From a virus (lineage: Duplodnaviria > Heunggongvirae > Uroviricota > Caudoviricetes), in the IMG/VR virus record IMGVR_UViG_2711768076_000018: a stretch of DNA of 15,816 nucleotides; one strand, written 5' to 3'. A model generated the notes under the pieces. It was not told the DNA's origin. It was given only the letters and a program-made list of their open reading frames with translations, and did no database searches. Positions 1 through 15,816 of the stretch are shown here, piece after piece. Every line of letters begins with the position of its first letter. Within the stretch, counting starts at the first letter, position 1. Made by a program: the position numbers and the translations under genes.

Positions 1-1236
1 ATGATTACACATTTCCGTCAAGCCATAGAAGAAACGCTACCCTGGCTCTCCTCTTTTGGCGCTGACCCAGCGGGTGGGATGACCCGTTTACTTTATTCGC
101 CGGAATGGCTGGAAACCCAGCAGCAATTTAAAAAAAGAATGGCAGCAAGCGGGCTGGAAACACGTTTCGATGAAGTGGGGAATTTATACGGTCGCCTGAG
201 TGGCACCGAATATCCACAGGAAGTGGTTCTGAGCGGTTCGCATATCGATACCGTGGTTAACGGCGGTAACCTCGACGGGCAATTCGGCGCGCTGGCGGCG
301 TGGCTGGCAATTGACTGGTTGAAAACGCAATACGGCGCGCCGTTACGTACGGTCGAAGTGGTGGCGATGGCAGAAGAAGAAGGCAGCCGCTTCCCGTATG
401 TCTTCTGGGGCAGTAAAAATATCTTTGGGCTGGCGAACCCTGACGACGTGCGGAATATCTGTGATGCCAAAGGAAATAGTTTTGTCGATGCGATGAAGGC
501 TTGCGGATTTACTCTGCCGAACGCCCCACTAACTCCGCGTCAGGATATTAAAGCCTTTGTTGAACTGCATATTGAACAGGGCTGTGTGCTGGAAAGTAAT
601 GGTCAATCAATTGGCGTGGTGAATGCAATTGTCGGGCAGCGTCGCTATACGGTGACGCTGAACGGCGAATCAAACCATGCAGGCACCACGCCGATGGGTT
701 ATCGTCGTGATACGGTTTACGCTTTCAGTCGCATTTGCCATCAGTCGATCGAAAAAGCGAAAAAGATGGGCGATCCGCTGGTTCTGACCTTTGGCAAAGT
801 AGAGCCGCGTCCGAATACGGTGAATGTGGTACCGGGTAAAACCACGTTCACCATTGATTGTCGTCATACCGACGCTGCCGTGCTGCGCGATTTCACCCAA
901 CAGTTAGAAAACGACATGCGGGCGATTTGCGATGAAATGGACATTGGTATTGATATCGATTTATGGATGGACGAAGAACCCGTGCCGATGAATAAGGAGC
1001 TGGTCGCCACCCTGACAGAATTGTGTGAAAGTGAAAAACTGAATTACCGGGTGATGCACAGTGGTGCCGGGCACGACGCGCAAATTTTCGCGCCTCGCGT
1101 ACCAACCTGCATGATTTTCATTCCCAGCATCAATGGGATCAGCCATAACCCGGCGGAACGCACCAATATTACCGACCTTGCCGAAGGGGTCAAAACGTTG
1201 GCACTCATGCTTTATCAACTTGCCTGGCAGAAATAA
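1..1236 (+). CDS. allC: allantoate amidohydrolase (M20 peptidase family)
   Basis: 411-aa ORF starting at window position 1 (MITHFRQAIEETLPWLSSFG ... LYQLAWQK). Recognised from memory as enterobacterial AllC, essentially full length. ATG start, TAA stop at 1234-1236. Confidence 0.9.
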   Translation: MITHFRQAIEETLPWLSSFGADPAGGMTRLLYSPEWLETQQQFKKRMAASGLETRFDEVGNLYGRLSGTEYPQEVVLSGSHIDTVVNGGNLDGQFGALAAWLAIDWLKTQYGAPLRTVEVVAMAEEEGSRFPYVFWGSKNIFGLANPDDVRNICDAKGNSFVDAMKACGFTLPNAPLTPRQDIKAFVELHIEQGCVLESNGQSIGVVNAIVGQRRYTVTLNGESNHAGTTPMGYRRDTVYAFSRICHQSIEKAKKMGDPLVLTFGKVEPRPNTVNVVPGKTTFTIDCRHTDAAVLRDFTQQLENDMRAICDEMDIGIDIDLWMDEEPVPMNKELVATLTELCESEKLNYRVMHSGAGHDAQIFAPRVPTCMIFIPSINGISHNPAERTNITDLAEGVKTLALMLYQLAWQK

Positions 1237-8444: not shown

Positions 8445-8693
8445 TTATTGTTTCACTGGCTCCCGCATTCTGCGTCTTATTTTCCACAAATATTCGATCA
8501 TCGCTTCCACCTGCTCACGGTTGGTTGCGAAAATTTCCCCGGTCAGTGAGCTACGCAGAAAATCATGATGATCCACAAAAAATAACGCATCGGAAGAAAG
8601 CAACCGACGATATTTTTTTGCTGTCGTGGTTTCCAGATCATCAAAACCATGAAGCTTTTTATGTTGCTGAACTTCTTCAAATGTCACTGGCAT
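8445..8693 (-). CDS. hypothetical protein (82 aa)
   Basis: ATG at 8693 overlaps the end of the ProQ/FinO gene by 10 nt. No family recognised. Confidence 0.5.
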   Translation of the reverse strand: MPVTFEEVQQHKKLHGFDDLETTTAKKYRRLLSSDALFFVDHHDFLRSSLTGEIFATNREQVEAMIEYLWKIRRRMREPVKQ

Positions 8694-9214
8694 GTATCCC
8701 CCTTTGCTGCCCGGCGCTGGCGCTTGTGCTTCTCATTCAGCACCATCAGCCGTGTTTCTGCCTCCTGCTGTTCCTGTGGTGTCACTTCCCCACATGGCTG
8801 GCCTTTCAGGTCGTAACGTGCGCCACCAGCTATCAGGGCGCGGTAATAGCGCGGAGACTGCGCATAGGATGCCAGCGTCGCACGTAATACCCCCGGCCCG
8901 AATGCCAGCCCCCTGACGGCGATATCCTGCATCAGGTCGTCGAATATCCCCACCTTAAGCGGCTTCGGTGCTTTATGGCTGAATAAGTCAGGCCACATCT
9001 CAGTGAGGCGGTTAACGCGTCGGCGGTTTTTGCGCTGCCTTTTGGTCATATGCTGCCACGGTGTCGCCCCTGTGGGCTTCTGCTGTGCGTTCTGATTGCC
9101 GGGTATCACTTTATGCGCCGATGTGGTTTTATCCTGCTCTTGCGCCGCCTGCGTCGTTTTCTGCGGCGTGCCGTAAATGCCTTTCGGCTTCCGGTTAATG
9201 GTCAGCGTTGTCAT
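8684..9214 (-). CDS. ProQ/FinO-domain RNA-binding protein
   Basis: 176 aa. The segment PLKVGIFDDLMQDI ... LRATLASYAQSPRYYRALIAGGARYDLKGQPCGEVTPQEQ matches the ProQ N-terminal FinO-like domain from memory (PLKIGIFQDL ... [22 protein letters not shown]). Basic low-complexity N-terminus. ATG 9214 with GGGGAAGG SD. Confidence 0.75.
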   Translation of the reverse strand: MTTLTINRKPKGIYGTPQKTTQAAQEQDKTTSAHKVIPGNQNAQQKPTGATPWQHMTKRQRKNRRRVNRLTEMWPDLFSHKAPKPLKVGIFDDLMQDIAVRGLAFGPGVLRATLASYAQSPRYYRALIAGGARYDLKGQPCGEVTPQEQQEAETRLMVLNEKHKRQRRAAKGDTCQ

Positions 9215-9250
9215 GCCTTCCCCTGTAATTACTCTGTTCGCTGTTGTGAA

Positions 9251-9676
9251 TTAAAACGGTATGTTATCCCCGTACGGGTCATCGTGCTGGCTTGTCTGTT
9301 GTTTTGCCCTGTTCAGTGCGTCAGTGGCCTGGCCCTGTTGACCTTTTTTGCCGCCCGGTCGCGCCGTTCGCGCACTGATTACGCTGTCTGCAATAACCTG
9401 CCAGCCCTGCCGCGTTTCCCCGTTCTGGCCTGTCCACTGGCTCACCTGCATGTTACCCGCCACGCTCACCAGTTCGCCTTTGTGGTGTTTTGCCAGTGCG
9501 TCGGCCTGTCTGCCAAACGCCAGGACAGATAACCACATCGTCGCCGTTCCGTCATCTGCCTGGCTGCACGGCAGGGGAACCGCCATACTCGCCATCGCCA
9601 TTTGTGTCCCTTTGCTGGTGGTCTTTAACTGCGGGTCAGCCACCAGCCGCCCGTAAGCCGCTATCTGTGCTGTCAT
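9251..9676 (-). CDS. ssb: single-stranded DNA-binding protein
   Basis: 141 aa with an OB-fold N-terminus (YGRLVADPQLKTTSKG ...), a Gly/Gln-rich linker and an acidic tip DDPYGDNIPF (compare DDDIPF in E. coli SSB). ATG 9676 overlaps the upstream stop. Confidence 0.85.
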   Translation of the reverse strand: MTAQIAAYGRLVADPQLKTTSKGTQMAMASMAVPLPCSQADDGTATMWLSVLAFGRQADALAKHHKGELVSVAGNMQVSQWTGQNGETRQGWQVIADSVISARTARPGGKKGQQGQATDALNRAKQQTSQHDDPYGDNIPF

Positions 9677-9918
9677 GCTGTCTGCTCTCCGGTTTTAACG
9701 TTGATGGTTGTCACCTGTTCCGCTTCGGCAATCTCCCGTTCTGTCAGCGTGGCAAAGTTTGCCGCTGCCGTGGTCATGAATGCGCTTACCAGTTCGGGAT
9801 GTGCTTTTGCGTACCCTTCTCCCGCGTTGCGGTCGATGATTTTTATCGCCACCCTCAGCCAGTGTTCTGTCAAATCAAGGGCGTGAGATTGTGGTTTTTT
9901 TGCGTGCTTCGTTGTCAC
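9673..9918 (-). CDS. hypothetical protein (81 aa)
   Basis: GTG start at 9918 with GAGGT SD; stop overlaps the ssb start. First gene downstream of the ori. Confidence 0.45.
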   Translation of the reverse strand: MTTKHAKKPQSHALDLTEHWLRVAIKIIDRNAGEGYAKAHPELVSAFMTTAAANFATLTEREIAEAEQVTTINVKTGEQTA

Positions 9919-9963
9919 AGGCTTTACCTCACAGCAATAAAATAAAATTTTTGCATTTTAACC

Positions 9964-10192
9964 CTTCACCTGTTCACCTTTTGAGATTTTCCCTTTTTAT
10001 TCATAATGTTAAGGGGTGAACAGTTTCACAAAAACTATTCACCAACTGTTCACCACTGTTCACCCTTAAAGCTCAATAAATAATCAAAAAGGTGAACAGT
10101 GAATAGTTTGGTGAACAGTTCACAAATAACTGTTCACCCTATAATGTACTGATATAAAAGATATTTATAACAGGGTGAACAGTGGTGAACAG
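9964..10192. repeat. replication origin: iteron array of 9-bp GGTGAACAG / CTGTTCACC repeats flanking AT-rich DNA
   Basis: Perfect copies of GGTGAACAG at 10015, 10091, 10110, 10174 and 10184. Perfect inverse copies CTGTTCACC at 9970, 10046, 10056 and 10130. Degenerate copies at 10035 and 10099. AT-rich stretch at 10140-10170. The array abuts the primase stop at 10206. Confidence 0.75.
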
Positions 10193-10205
10193 TTATTCCA
10201 TAAGT

Positions 10206-12020
10206 TTAATTTTTGCTGTCGTCATTTGTGACCGATGCACATGATGGCATCCAGTCTTCTGAATCCTCTGTCAGTGTCACATTTGAACGCAAACCGTGCT
10301 TCGTTTTCCGTTTTATATACTCCCTGCCATATTCCGCCATTGCCCCCGGCATATCTTTACCGAAGCGCGTCAGTGTTACAGGTTTACCGAATCCGTGTGC
10401 CCTCATATATGCCAGATAGGCGTGATAAAGATACCTGCGCGGACTGAACGGAATAATTTCGGCATTACCCACTAACAGACCATCACACATTACCGACGAC
10501 ATGAGATAGCCACAGAAGTCCACCAGCGAATCGCCCTCGCGTTTTATCACCAGAGCTTCTTCTGATTTCTGCTGCTCATACAGCAGGCGTTTAGCTTCGT
10601 CCTGGTCAGAAAAACGAGTAAGCAGATGGCGAATCACAACCGCCAGCTCTCCTTCTATTTTTTCTGCCAGCATGGGGTCGCGCTCGTTCTCCGGTACAAC
10701 CTCCGAAAAATTGAATATCACCCGACGACGTGAGATCCCCCCGCTGCGGTCACTGAATGACATGGCGTTATTGTTCACCGCCAGCACGACCGCCTGAATG
10801 CGTGTTGAGTAGGGGGCTTTATGCTTCGGGTCGATTGCCACCTTGTCACCGCCTGTAATAGCCTTAATTCCTGCGCCATCACCAGCGTAGCGGGTCATAT
10901 CCGGCATGATAATCAGCGAAAAGCCAACCACTAACGCGCGTTCCCTTGCATCTTCCAGCGCCTTCATGCTTGCCGATACTGTGTTGGCCTTACCCGCCAG
11001 CATGGTGCAAATCTCCGCCATCACGCTTTTACCACTTCCCCCTGGACCTGTTACCTCAATGAATAACTGCCAGTCGTACCGGTTCGCCAGCACCATGAAT
11101 AATGCAGCCAGCACGCGATCCGTCTTGCGGTCATTCTCTGCCACCGAGCAGCGTAACCACTTCCAGAAATTCGGCGCATGTGTTGCCAGCGTTTCCCCCT
11201 CTGCTGGTGGGCTGAAAGGTAATTCACTGGCAATTAACAACCAGTCGTTTTTGTTATGCTCCCGAAAATTACCTGTTCTGGTATCAAATACCCCGTTACT
11301 GAATCCAATCAGGTTACGGGCTGTATTCCCCATTACAGGCAAACTTAACTTCATGGTATCGACCGCCGATTTAATGGCGTTCTGCGAATAGCTGATCTCC
11401 GCATCAATGAAAATCTGCGCCATAGCACGCTGTAACTCTTTATCCTGAATCGGCTCCCATACAACGCCGTTGTAATGGTGAACAGTGTCAGAGTCGGCAT
11501 GAATCGCCAGTTCACCGCCATAATGTGCCAGGAGAACTTCGCCGCGCTGGCTTGCTCCCATCTGGTTAAGCGCCAGTGGTGCGGCGCTGTCTTCTGTTTT
11601 TTTCTTAACAGGAAGCTGAATCACCAGACCATCAGAAAGATTCTGGCGCTCACGGGCCAGATATTCGCGCCAGTTCTGCACCTCCTGGCCGTGCATACCC
11701 TCAGGATAAAAATTTGCATCCTGTACGCCTGCCGCCGCCAGCTTCTGACCAATCGCCTTTATCATTACTGGCGCAAGATATCCGGCCCTGAATATGCGCA
11801 CGGATTTTCTGCCTTCCGGCACAATTTGCAGCTTATCCAGTTCGGATAACTGCTGCTCCCCAAGCCACACAGGAGGCTCATTATCTCCGGCCATACGCGC
11901 GTCATGTTCCTGCCATTGTTTTGCGTGTGACCAGGCATCACTACCCGCAAAAATAATGACTTCTGTTTCTTTGTGTTTTATGCCGCGTGACTGCTGTTTT
12001 ACGTTCGGTGCCAGTTTCAT
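10206..12020 (-). CDS. primase/helicase replication initiator (P4-alpha-like, Walker A NTPase C-terminal domain)
   Basis: 604 aa with Walker A GPGGSGKS in the C-terminal half, of a size typical for satellite or plasmid primase-helicases. ATG 12020 overlaps the upstream stop (ATGA). Confidence 0.85.
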   Translation of the reverse strand: MKLAPNVKQQSRGIKHKETEVIIFAGSDAWSHAKQWQEHDARMAGDNEPPVWLGEQQLSELDKLQIVPEGRKSVRIFRAGYLAPVMIKAIGQKLAAAGVQDANFYPEGMHGQEVQNWREYLARERQNLSDGLVIQLPVKKKTEDSAAPLALNQMGASQRGEVLLAHYGGELAIHADSDTVHHYNGVVWEPIQDKELQRAMAQIFIDAEISYSQNAIKSAVDTMKLSLPVMGNTARNLIGFSNGVFDTRTGNFREHNKNDWLLIASELPFSPPAEGETLATHAPNFWKWLRCSVAENDRKTDRVLAALFMVLANRYDWQLFIEVTGPGGSGKSVMAEICTMLAGKANTVSASMKALEDARERALVVGFSLIIMPDMTRYAGDGAGIKAITGGDKVAIDPKHKAPYSTRIQAVVLAVNNNAMSFSDRSGGISRRRVIFNFSEVVPENERDPMLAEKIEGELAVVIRHLLTRFSDQDEAKRLLYEQQKSEEALVIKREGDSLVDFCGYLMSSVMCDGLLVGNAEIIPFSPRRYLYHAYLAYMRAHGFGKPVTLTRFGKDMPGAMAEYGREYIKRKTKHGLRSNVTLTEDSEDWMPSCASVTNDDSKN

Positions 12021-12555: not shown

Positions 12556-13012
12556 GGCTTACATCCTCAGGAAATTTTCTTCTATAACGCGCCTCTGCCA
12601 CATATTCCGCATAATCGGCGGCGATATTCAGTACATCAAGCCCCGTTGATTTATATTCTCTCGTGGAAAGTAAGAAAAAAGCCGCTCTAATAAGCTCTGG
12701 CATTGACGAAAGCGCATCAGCCGCATCATCAGGAACGCCGGAAAATTCCTGTTTCAGGGAATTAAAACGATCATCACGCATAACCCCCCCATTTTCACAA
12801 TCAGCAATCAGGATGGCTTTAGCCTCATTCAGCGCCATATCCGCACTAAGTTGCATAACAGCCAGTGAGTGAGGAACGAAAGCCCCGGCATATTCTGTTT
12901 CGCTGGTGGCGCGCTTATGCGCCTTGTCTGCGATAACAGAAATATCAATCAGCGCGTGCATCAGCGTTTTGATGGCTTCGGCGGCTGCGTCCGGACGGGT
13001 GTTATTGCACAT
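12548..13012 (-). CDS. hypothetical protein (154 aa)
   Basis: ATG 13012 overlaps the upstream stop by 11 nt. Confidence 0.5.
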   Translation of the reverse strand: MCNNTRPDAAAEAIKTLMHALIDISVIADKAHKRATSETEYAGAFVPHSLAVMQLSADMALNEAKAILIADCENGGVMRDDRFNSLKQEFSGVPDDAADALSSMPELIRAAFFLLSTREYKSTGLDVLNIAADYAEYVAEARYRRKFPEDVSHA

Positions 13013-13208
13013 GGCGTACCCCCTGACGAATACGGGCAGCGAATACCATCACGCAGCCATCAGGAGATTGCTGACGCGCTTCCTGTTCGCTGGTGGCCTC
13101 AATGGTAATCACGCGCGGTTGTGCCGTGCTCAGGGCGATAAAACGCCAGATGTATTTATTCAGGTTGTACGAGTCCCGCCCTTGCGGGTGTCTGGTATAA
13201 TTTCTCAT
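13002..13208 (-). CDS. hypothetical small protein (68 aa), first gene of the leftward replication operon
   Basis: ATG 13208 with GAGG SD. This is the in-frame C-terminal part of a 374-aa ORF-track call that is itself implausible. Confidence 0.4.
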   Translation of the reverse strand: MRNYTRHPQGRDSYNLNKYIWRFIALSTAQPRVITIEATSEQEARQQSPDGCVMVFAARIRQGVRHVQ

Positions 13209-13407
13209 AGCTGCCTCGATACTTCTGCTATCGTTGGTGGTTAGAAGCCCGTTGGTGTTGGTAGCACCTGCGGGCTTTGTCTTTTCATCGATTACCTTAA
13301 TAAAGGTGTCAGCCACTATACTAGTGACAGGTGTCAGCCACGTCAATAGTGTTTTTCTATTTTCTTGTGTGTATACTGTCAGCCACCTAATAACAAGGAA
13401 ATCAGAT
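13209..13407. promoter_or_regulatory. divergent promoter/operator region with three TGTCAGCCAC repeats
   Basis: TGTCAGCCAC at 13307-13316, 13332-13341 and 13377-13386. The third copy overlaps a TATACT -10-like hexamer upstream of the plus-strand gene at 13408. On the minus strand the repeats read GTGGCTGACA and contain -35-like TGACA. Confidence 0.45.
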
Positions 13408-13587
13408 ATGGCAACGAAAGCAGTTAATGGAAAATCCAAAAAACTTGAGGCACGAGTACCCCATGCAATAGCTGACGCTGTAGAAAATTTAAAGGAAGAA
13501 GGCGAAAGCACTGGGCAATTTATCGTTTCGGCGCTTGAAGGTGAGATCAAACGCCGCCAGCGCCGAAAGGCCAAAGAGCAGGAATAA
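13408..13587 (+). CDS. small ribbon-helix-helix-like DNA-binding protein (59 aa), candidate regulator
   Basis: ATG 13408 with AAGGAA SD. The predicted strand-helix-helix pattern (KLEARVPHAIADAVENLKEEGESTGQFIVSALEGEI) and basic C-tail fit an RHH protein. It is one of only two plus-strand genes in the element and diverges from the replication operon. Confidence 0.55.
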   Translation: MATKAVNGKSKKLEARVPHAIADAVENLKEEGESTGQFIVSALEGEIKRRQRRKAKEQE

Positions 13588-13644
13588 CCATCACCAGCGC
13601 CGTGGTGTAAGGTATTACGGCGCATTGCTATGCAGGACAACACA

Positions 13645-13818
13645 ATGACCGATAAAGAATTGACCAAAACATTATCACCGACACGGAAAAGACGACGCAG
13701 AAAGATAGAGCATGAATCAGAAAGATTCGCGCCATGTGCTTTTGCCCTTGAGCAATTCCTTAAAGAGTACAGGGAAAAGCGCTCATTGCAGGTATGGCAA
13801 CGAACTGAACCAGACTGA
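13645..13818 (+). CDS. hypothetical small basic protein (57 aa)
   Basis: ATG 13645 preceded by AGGA at 7-nt spacing. Followed by a plus-strand terminator at 13885-13913. Confidence 0.35.
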   Translation: MTDKELTKTLSPTRKRRRRKIEHESERFAPCAFALEQFLKEYREKRSLQVWQRTEPD

Positions 13819-13884
13819 TTGCATTGCCCACCAGCCGCAAATGTGGCATTGTTGGTGATGCTTTTGTTTTCCCTTGTTCCCACT

Positions 13885-13913
13885 GGCGACCCTTTTGCGG
13901 TCGCCTTTGTTTT
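13885..13913 (+). terminator. intrinsic terminator for the plus-strand small-gene unit
   Basis: GGCGACC-cttttgc-GGTCGCC hairpin followed by TTTGTTTTGCTT. Confidence 0.65.
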
Positions 13914-13951
13914 GCTTGTTATCCGGCAATAGTGGCGCTTCACCACACGGT

Positions 13952-14038
13952 TGATATAATTCCCCTGCACTGATCCATTTTTTTCGCAGCAGGTTAATTG
14001 TTCAGAAAGGCGGTTCCTTATCGGGGCCGCTTTTTTTA
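13952..14038 (+). ncRNA. candidate small RNA (about 70 nt) from an extended -10 promoter to an intrinsic terminator
   Basis: TGaTATAAT at 13952-13960 is a consensus -10 with extended TG motif; the -35 is poor. Terminator hairpin GCGGTTCC-ttatc-GGGGCCGC plus T7 lies at 14010-14037. No ORF with an RBS lies between. Confidence 0.3.
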
Positions 14039-14150
14039 TGCCTGAAAATACCCGATAACATGGCTTTTTAGTTTCACCAGGACGAACGAAGCCCCGCCCC
14101 TGTTCGGGCGTATATCCAGTATTCATGGTTAGATCTCTGTGTTAGTGGAT

Positions 14151-14742: not shown

Positions 14743-15816
14743 TTATTTTCTTCTGGCTGCTGGTAGTGCGGTTACGTTTTCATGTGCTCCCGCCAGTATC
14801 CCTAACCGCTCCGTCCACATATCCAGCGCATTGCGTTTCGCATCCAGATAACGGGAGTGATTATAGACTCGTTGCATCCCTGGCATCTGGTGTCCTGTAA
14901 GCTGCTCCACGACATGCGGATCAACGCCTAAATCGTTCAGCATGGTTGTAAAGGTGCGCCGGATGTCATGCAGTGACCAGTGGGGGTGATTAAGCCTCCT
15001 GTGCGCTAATCTTCCATACTGCGATACGCTGGCCTCCTGTTTCACTTCCCCCAGCAATAAGCCCGTGTGCCTGTTCTGCTCCACCAGCTGCGTGATGAAC
15101 GGCAGTATTGCTTCCGGTATAGGCCGGAATATGGCTACCTTCGTTTTGCTGTGCTCCTTCGGAACGGTCCAGAGCATTTCGGTAAAATCCCACTCGCCGA
15201 TCTCCGATAACCTAAGTTCGACCGTCCGGCATCCGAACACAATCAGGAGGCGGATTAGCGCGATGTAGTAGGGGGAAAATATTTTTTTGTCCAGTGCCTG
15301 CAATAATTCGCCCAGCTCTTTATTGCTTAAGACACGTTCGCTTATATCCGGTTTTTTCCCAACGTCCGCTACGTTCAGATCATCGAGAACGTTACTGATT
15401 GCATAGCGCCGCCTCCGGCAGTACTTAAGCGCCTGTTTGCATGTCTGTAGCACGAATCCGGCAGTAACAGGTGTTCGCTTTGCCACCTGGTCAAAGCAGG
15501 CCAGCCAGTGCCGTAGCTCGCATTTATCCAGCGGCATAGCACCAATTTTGGTGATTATGTTTTTATTGATCCGGCTTTTCAGTGATTCGTAATCTGTGCG
15601 CTTTTCCTTTGCGTACGACTCAAGCCAATAGGTGAGCGCATCGCCAACCGTTACAGGCTTTAACGCTTCCTGCATGGTGTAATTCAGTTCATAGCGTGGA
15701 TTTTTCCCCTCAGCCAGCCATGCGCGACACTGGGCGGCTTTTTCCCTGGCTGCTTTCAGACTCAGATCGGGATAATTTCCCAGCTTAACGCGTTCAGGTT
15801 GTGTCCCTCTTCCCAT
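14743..15816 (-). CDS. int: tyrosine integrase (P4/CP4-57 type), 5'-partial
   Basis: 357 aa visible, with the C-terminal catalytic region (HDIRRTF ... YNHSRY). The region LGNYPDLSLKAAREKAAQCRAWLAEGKNP aligns, from memory, to around residues 55-85 of P4-type integrases, so about 45 N-terminal codons probably lie beyond the window. Confidence 0.85.
   Translation of the reverse strand: MGRGTQPERVKLGNYPDLSLKAAREKAAQCRAWLAEGKNPRYELNYTMQEALKPVTVGDALTYWLESYAKEKRTDYESLKSRINKNIITKIGAMPLDKCELRHWLACFDQVAKRTPVTAGFVLQTCKQALKYCRRRRYAISNVLDDLNVADVGKKPDISERVLSNKELGELLQALDKKIFSPYYIALIRLLIVFGCRTVELRLSEIGEWDFTEMLWTVPKEHSKTKVAIFRPIPEAILPFITQLVEQNRHTGLLLGEVKQEASVSQYGRLAHRRLNHPHWSLHDIRRTFTTMLNDLGVDPHVVEQLTGHQMPGMQRVYNHSRYLDAKRNALDMWTERLGILAGAHENVTALPAARRK

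Follow-up and report, generated by a model that had tools for sequence, protein, structure and literature searches.

What is the role of the dense cluster of short repeats located immediately 3′ of an initiator gene in this stretch of viral DNA, and could it be the site from which replication of the element starts? The window (the whole stretch analyzed, 15,816 bp) contains 10 perfect copies of the 9-mer GGTGAACAG (reverse complement CTGTTCACC), nine of which are confined to positions 9970-10192 and one of which lies at 11477, inside the initiator gene. On the plus strand, five of the clustered copies read GGTGAACAG and four read CTGTTCACC. Together with four degenerate sites they occupy positions 9962-10192 (Table 1), in agreement with the first-pass annotation, which had reported nine perfect and several degenerate copies of the motif in both orientations within about 230 bp. 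In dinucleotide-preserving shuffles of the whole window, the perfect 9-mer occurred 0.11 times on average and at most twice, and 10 copies were reached in no shuffle. When up to two mismatches were allowed, 13 sites were found in the 287-bp intergenic region (9919-10205), compared to 1.28 expected from their density elsewhere in the window. The conserved iteron unit is 8-9 bp long, with TGTTCACC as its core octamer, and neighboring iterons are 10-11 bp apart, that is, approximately one helical turn. The GC content of the repeat region is 0.28-0.37 versus ~0.55 in the flanks. Only 13 nt separate the edge of the cluster (10192) from the stop codon of the initiator gene (10206-10208), and the other end of the intergenic gap is marked by the GTG start codon of an 81-aa ORF.

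A trivial explanation would be that the repeats are of low complexity and arose by chance, or that they form a structured RNA or DNA hairpin unrelated to replication. Indeed, the single-stranded fold of the region is unusually stable (z = -7), and an Rfam search of the repeat region returned hairpin matches. However, all these matches are to eukaryotic miRNA models and lie far below the gathering scores; they occur because the cluster contains inverted repeats, and the stable fold is likewise a trivial result of the inverted iterons. Furthermore, the sites are conserved across genera: in 10 orthologous intergenic regions representing six genera (from E. coli, phage vB_KppS-Ant, Raoultella, Pluralibacter, Citrobacter, Klebsiella, and Kluyvera), 62% of the columns within iterons are invariant versus 33% within spacers (Mann-Whitney p = 2e-8). 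The shuffles, the conservation, and the Rfam scores thus effectively refute this explanation, leaving it a negligible likelihood.

The element that carries the cluster is an E. coli phage satellite of the capsid-forming PICI (cf-PICI) type. All genes between 2175 and 15816 are encoded on the minus strand, in the order integrase, Icd-like-domain protein, DUF4222 protein, the 604-aa initiator, the repeats, the 81-aa ORF, SSB, and ProQ/FinO, followed by the major capsid protein, protease, portal, adaptor, HNH, TerS, and TerL. This gene content is as described for cf-PICIs (10.1101/2022.09.08.507074), and the hallmarks of Gram-negative PICIs, namely, an integrase, a unidirectional operon, a length of ~15 kb, and island-specific genes, are all present. 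The island adjoins allC and is 99.4% identical to an element in E. coli strain AST19; given that the host allC gene occupies the left end of the window, the left boundary of the island must lie between 1237 and 2175. The presence of an island-encoded SSB, also pointed out at first pass, was confirmed by the Pfam match, and the C-terminal tail of this protein resembles the C-terminal tip of the host SSB, which suggests that it could plug into the host replisome partners. As for the neighboring genes, the 81-aa ORF preceding the SSB gene is also found in EcCICFT073, ABU 83972, the O157 islands, and Sakai Sp7, and the ProQ/FinO gene is present in the ABU 83972 island, where it is frameshifted. 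In related islands, the Icd-like protein is encoded by a separate gene of ~67 aa; the 374-aa ORF of the window may represent an over-call or a fusion.

The cluster itself displays a regular organization. The first-pass annotation envisaged iterons surrounding one AT-rich stretch; instead, there are three AT-rich spacers (75-81% A+T), one inside each of two mirror-image units that resemble the ori of satellite phage P4 and one between the units (Table 1). Each unit of ~105 bp follows the scheme of two iterons, 35-36 bp of AT-rich DNA, one inverted iteron, ~12 bp, and three iterons, and the two units, which are 68% identical to each other, flank a 26-bp AT-rich center. According to the nearest-neighbor profile, the spacer S3 is the least stable duplex in the cluster and ranks with the least stable 25-mers anywhere in the window; in the alignment, it is the counterpart of the AT-rich spacer in the P4 ori unit.

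Table 1 Features of the window and of the iteron cluster (positions in the 15,816-bp window)
Feature	Position	Strand	Remarks
allC (allantoate deiminase, Peptidase_M20), host gene	1-1236	+	Left end of the window
ProQ/FinO-family RNA-binding protein	8684-9214	-	E = 1e-23; flanked by the SSB gene and the capsid module
SSB	9251-9676	-	141 aa; Pfam SSB, E = 4e-16; C-terminal end DDPYGDNIPF
81-aa ORF	9673-9918	-	Directly after the putative origin; phrog_1231; no Pfam match
Left ori-like unit	9960-10066	+	2 iterons, 36-bp AT spacer, 1 inverted iteron, 3 iterons
Whole iteron cluster (putative origin core)	9962-10192	.	9 perfect + 4 degenerate CTGTTCACC sites; iterons exceed spacers in column conservation (10 orthologous regions)
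Degenerate iteron CCCTTCACC	9962-9970	+	2 mismatches
Perfect iteron CTGTTCACC	9970-9978	+	
AT spacer S1	9979-10014	.	36 bp, 75% A+T; inside left unit
Perfect iteron	10015-10023	-	GGTGAACAG on + strand
Degenerate iteron CTATTCACC	10035-10043	+	1 mismatch
Perfect iteron	10046-10054	+	
Perfect iteron	10056-10064	+	10 bp from the 10046-10054 copy
Central AT spacer S2	10065-10090	.	26 bp, 81% A+T; symmetry center between units
Right ori-like unit	10089-10194	-	Mirror image of left unit; inverted repeats I1, I2
Perfect iteron	10091-10099	-	Best-conserved site across genera
Degenerate iteron CTATTCACT	10098-10106	-	2 mismatches
Perfect iteron	10110-10118	-	
Degenerate overlapping iteron CAGTTCACA	10116-10124	+	2 mismatches
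Perfect iteron	10130-10138	+	
AT spacer S3	10139-10173	.	35 bp, 80% A+T; candidate melting site
Perfect iteron	10174-10182	-	
Perfect iteron	10184-10192	-	10 bp from the 10174-10182 copy; pair GGTGAACAGTGGTGAACAG also in P4 ori
Initiator/helicase gene	10206-12020	-	604 aa; P4 alpha-like at aa 137-599; Pfam D5_N, DUF5906, Pox_D5
Predicted C-terminal winged-helix origin-binding domain	10245-10535	-	aa 496-592; PDB 1KA8, E = 3.3e-24
N-terminal ~135-aa module	11616-12020	-	Where P4 has the primase domain; common to PICI initiators with unrelated helicase parts
374-aa ORF	13002-14126	-	C-terminal (aa 325-368) domain of the Icd-like type (host cell division inhibitor)
Integrase (int)	14743-15816	-	

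By homology, the initiator is an SF3-clade, P4 alpha-like self-loading helicase. It is 49% identical to aa 313-776 of P4 alpha over 464 aa, and its ATPase core matches the helicase of SaPI5 PriRep5 (7OLA, E = 2.8e-10). The best indication of its DNA target is the C-terminal part, aa 496-592, which matches the experimentally determined structure of the origin-binding domain of P4 alpha (PDB 1KA8, E = 3.3e-24). The DnaG-type Zn-ribbon/Toprim primase domain of P4 is not recognizable in the 604-aa protein, which carries an unrelated module of ~135 aa in its place. Accordingly, of the designation "primase/helicase" given to this gene at first pass, the helicase part is borne out by the Pfam, P4 alpha, and 7OLA matches, whereas the primase part is not, and because the P4 Zn-ribbon/Toprim domain is missing, both "primase" and the accompanying "self-contained replicon" are unproven. 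By implication, the "DNA primase" annotation of such PICI proteins is without support from a primase domain. The further prediction that the C-terminal domain of the initiator would bind the 9-mer fits the homology of this domain, the PICI-like position and layout of the site, and the nature of the iteron.

The identity of the iteron provides a direct connection to P4. The octamer TGTTCACC is annotated as "ori type 1 repeat" in the P4 record (NC_001609), where it is present in both ori (9086-9809) and crr, the "cis required region for replication" located directly 3′ of alpha and consisting of two direct 120-bp repeats; ori lies ~4.5 kb away from the gene-proximal crr. P4 and the window have in common not only the iteron core, which is repeated several times and on both strands, but also the 9-mer GGTGAACAG and the pair GGTGAACAGTGGTGAACAG, as well as the architecture of the ~105-bp ori unit, the SF3 helicase core combined with a winged-helix origin-binding domain, and an iteron cluster directly 3′ of the initiator gene. 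The differences are equally clear. P4 is bipartite, with ori and a distant crr, whereas the window has a single compact cluster made up of two units in inverted orientation; alpha contains the Zn-ribbon and Toprim primase domain in place of which the window protein has the unrelated module; and neither the type II repeats of P4 (apart from a single partial match at 10063 in the cluster) nor its t-alpha terminator were found in the window. None of the papers searched states the P4 iteron link for PICIs, and a full-text search for TGTTCACC retrieved only unrelated primer sequences.

Comparison of the units to the two P4 sites revealed that the cluster corresponds to crr in position but is closer to ori in sequence. 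The P4 ori unit is 70% identical to the left unit and 65% identical to the right unit, with z-scores of 20 and 17, respectively, for local alignments relative to shuffles (that of the right unit extending over 104 bp), compared to 47-62% identity between the window units and the two crr repeats. The link to P4 was not made in the first-pass annotation, and it raises a complication, because in P4 the gene-proximal position is that of crr rather than ori. The cluster could therefore be a crr-like auxiliary site, bound by the initiator and required in cis, with DNA synthesis starting elsewhere in the island; consistent with this, positions 9965-10021 can be aligned with the beginning of the 120-bp crr repeat, and the orientation with respect to the gene is the same in both. 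However, both arms of the cluster are nearer to ori than to crr, and the window, which extends from int to TerL and covers nearly the whole island, contains no second cluster but only isolated copies around 10772 and 11477.

A scan of IMG/VR for GGTGAACAGNGGTGAACAG bears on the same alternative. It identified at least 120 loci, 51 of those listed having a single matching pair only. Among the matches listed, pairs are arranged as in the window, on opposite strands and 128 bp apart (mirror128), in 43 loci, and as in P4 ori, on the same strand and 86 bp apart (direct86), in 26 loci. Again among the matches listed, the PICI N-terminal module accompanies 38 of the 43 mirror128 loci and none of the 26 direct86 loci, whereas the P4 Zn-ribbon/Toprim domain is present in 23 of 26 direct86 and 0 of 43 mirror128 loci. 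The mirror128 pairs listed are located 44-65 bp from where the winged-helix coding sequence ends, compared to 4-7 kb from the gene for direct86. Two clusters are usual in the P4-type contigs listed (43 of 59), which would be in line with a crr-like role for the gene-proximal one. In contrast, all 45 PICI-type contigs among the matches listed contain exactly one cluster, directly 3′ of the initiator gene (median of nine exact octamers, 221-bp span), and a distant cluster is found in none of them. Hence, the compact mirror arrangement is a conserved design rather than an accident of the window, and we regard it as very unlikely that the cluster is a mere counterpart of crr.

An origin at this position is consistent with what has been established for other satellites. 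In Gram-negative PICIs, ori has been mapped to the region 3′ of pri-rep, and a plasmid carrying pri-ori of EcCICFT073 replicates, whereas its delta-ori and delta-pri versions do not (PMC6092414). As in the window, the gene order in EcCICFT073 is DUF4222, initiator, an iteron region of ~288 bp, an ORF of ~80 aa, and SSB, the origin being directly 3′ of the initiator, with AT-rich DNA between groups of iterons. The first 140 aa of the EcCICFT073 initiator are ~98% identical to those of the window protein, but beyond this point, in the helicase and DNA-binding part, identity drops to ~45%, and the iteron is CTGTCTACC/GGTAGACAG (locus L006, 6997-7284) rather than TGTTCACC. Given that both iteron and helicase differ, the tested origin is a paralogous cassette and not that of the window. 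That EcCICFT073 itself might carry a window-type origin was ruled out, as it has no copies of TGTTCACC and a different iteron; the CFT073 region at 1.395-1.44 Mb, considered as a candidate for the EcCICFT073 island, proved to be a lambdoid prophage. The island of ABU 83972 that has a window-type origin is a different PICI with another insertion site. In Sakai Sp7/EDL933, the prototype cf-PICI, the iteron is TAACCCGCA/GCGGGTTAT (L080, 6734-7103, O157 Sakai Sp7), and the initiator has only its N-terminal 145 aa in common with the window protein (88%), the helicase part being unrelated. Both comparisons place a recombination breakpoint near codon 140 of the initiator. The paper describing cf-PICIs contains nothing on the origin (10.1101/2022.09.08.507074).

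The Reps of SaPIs are self-loading SF3-clade helicases whose C-terminal winged-helix domain binds iterons 3′ of rep, with the AT-rich center being melted without ATP (PMC9371898). The window conforms to this layout: an SF3-clade ATPase joined to a C-terminal winged-helix domain, for which no loader would be needed; iterons directly 3′ of the gene (6-12 in SaPIs) with AT-rich DNA between the sets; and, on either side, two or more iterons that point in opposite directions. However, SaPI iterons are penta- or hexanucleotides, compared to 8-9 bp in the window, the similarity between the initiators is limited to the ATPase core, and SaPIs carry a recognizable primase, either separate or fused, unlike the window initiator. 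The window differs from the classical iteron origins of theta plasmids (Rep_3/RepA). Those contain one or more DnaA boxes, often with IHF sites or Dam GATC, and their Rep is a dimeric winged-helix protein devoid of helicase activity, whereas the window initiator is an SF3 helicase; scans for DnaA boxes, the IHF consensus, GATC, and 13-mers found none in 9900-10260, which fits a self-loading initiator.

The exchange of iterons together with parts of the initiator extends well beyond these prototypes. At 72 loci drawn from genomes representative of their species, the gene is followed directly on its 3′ side by a repeat cluster whose sequence varies with the C-terminal region of the protein. The iteron TGTTCACC is found in the window, Klebsiella, and Raoultella, accompanying window-like proteins and P4-like alphas; TGTCTACC in EcCICFT073, E. 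ruysiae, Kluyvera georgiana, and Enterobacter; ACTGTCCG (ACTGTCCG/A) in Serratia; CTGTGCAC in Proteus; GGTAGAGA in Symbiopectobacterium; and TAACCCGCA, with a different helicase type, in Sakai Sp7. The repeat signal in Xenorhabdus and Photorhabdus is weaker and does not exceed that in shuffles. Since two different wing sequences both accompany TGTCTACC, we do not claim a simple wing-iteron code. Nevertheless, the C-terminal parts and the iterons change together behind a near-constant N-terminus, indicating that helicase, DNA-binding domain, and iteron travel as one cassette. PICI initiators thus consist of a constant N-terminal module and an exchangeable helicase/DNA-binding-domain/iteron cassette.

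Within E. coli, the window-type cassette is common. A segment of 451 bp spanning the repeats is present in 594 of 5426 complete genomes (~11%) at 90-100% identity, in up to six copies per genome. The same segment also occurs in classical PICIs carrying other packaging modules, from which it follows that the replication module, common to classical and capsid-forming PICIs, is shuffled between island types. With up to six origin/initiator junctions per genome, islands of one origin specificity coexist in one chromosome.

Collectively, these comparisons point to 9962-10192 being the origin of vegetative replication in a capsid-forming PICI of E. coli, operating by a P4 alpha-type mechanism, a reading that is very likely correct and to which we assign a probability of roughly 85%. 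The proposal made at first pass was likewise an iteron-type origin that directly follows the initiator gene, as in other PICIs, and the PICI-like position and layout, the homology to 1KA8, and the P4 type I repeat all concur with it; as iteron origins 3′ of PICI initiators have already been published, that reading is essentially correct and the feature largely expected. What is new here is that the cassette is of the P4 alpha type, with the iteron and unit architecture of P4 ori, that it comprises a single mirror-symmetric site, in contrast to ori plus crr in P4, served by an initiator lacking the P4 primase domain, and that it is distinct from the origins of the studied prototype PICIs. Upon induction, the winged-helix domain of the 604-aa protein would bind the 8-9-bp iterons CTGTTCACC, as judged from homology to P4 alpha and SaPI Reps. 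Alpha itself presumably binds TGTTCACC, as suggested by the annotation of the P4 record and the name of PDB entry 1KA8. Assembly of hexamers would be followed by opening of an AT-rich spacer, for which S3 is a candidate. The mirror symmetry of the units suits two opposed hexamers, and two oppositely oriented helicase hexamers may be loaded on the mirror units, giving rise to bidirectional (theta) replication. As a primase domain is not recognizable in the initiator, priming and elongation would probably be carried out by the host DnaG and Pol III, with assistance from the island SSB, which has the host-like ...IPF tail.

Plasmid iterons commonly have dual roles, and the repeats might likewise serve mainly as a regulatory array for the initiator, either as an operator or roadblock ahead of the 81-aa ORF, SSB, ProQ, and capsid genes or in copy control by "handcuffing". 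The cluster lies within a unidirectional operon, and no terminator or convincing minus-strand promoter was detected in the gap separating the initiator from the ORF that follows, so that a bound protein would obstruct transcription. Such a role is compatible with an additional origin function but, on its own, explains neither the AT-rich spacers and the P4 ori-like architecture of the units nor the published ori function of the equivalent EcCICFT073 region; as the main purpose of the repeats, we consider it improbable.

As a vegetative origin, the cluster is where a cassette present in ~11% of complete E. coli genomes acts in cis, probably through recognition of CTGTTCACC by a winged helix like that of 1KA8, and it provides a defined fragment of ~290 bp that could be used in PICI-based vectors. 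The homology of this cassette to the P4 replicon links two satellite families usually treated as unrelated. More speculatively, PICIs with the window-type cassette and P4-like satellites might share one origin specificity, given the identical iteron and the ~50% identical origin-binding domain, although we put this forward only tentatively. If so, when satellites from the two families reside together, the initiator of one could activate, titrate, or block the origin of the other, resulting in cross-talk or interference at the level of the replicon. In addition, the two mirrored ori units may compactly replace the ori-crr pairing of P4 and allow a double hexamer that lacks a built-in primase to be loaded head to head.

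A few iterons are also found within the initiator gene: a perfect copy at 11477-11485 (minus strand) and near-perfect copies at 11508-11516 and 10771-10779 (both plus strand). The P4 alpha gene, unlike that of the window, contains no exact octamers. The copies at 11477 and 11508 form an inverted pair 22 bp apart, the perfect one encoding T-V-H-H; the intragenic copies could reflect chance or an internal binding site.
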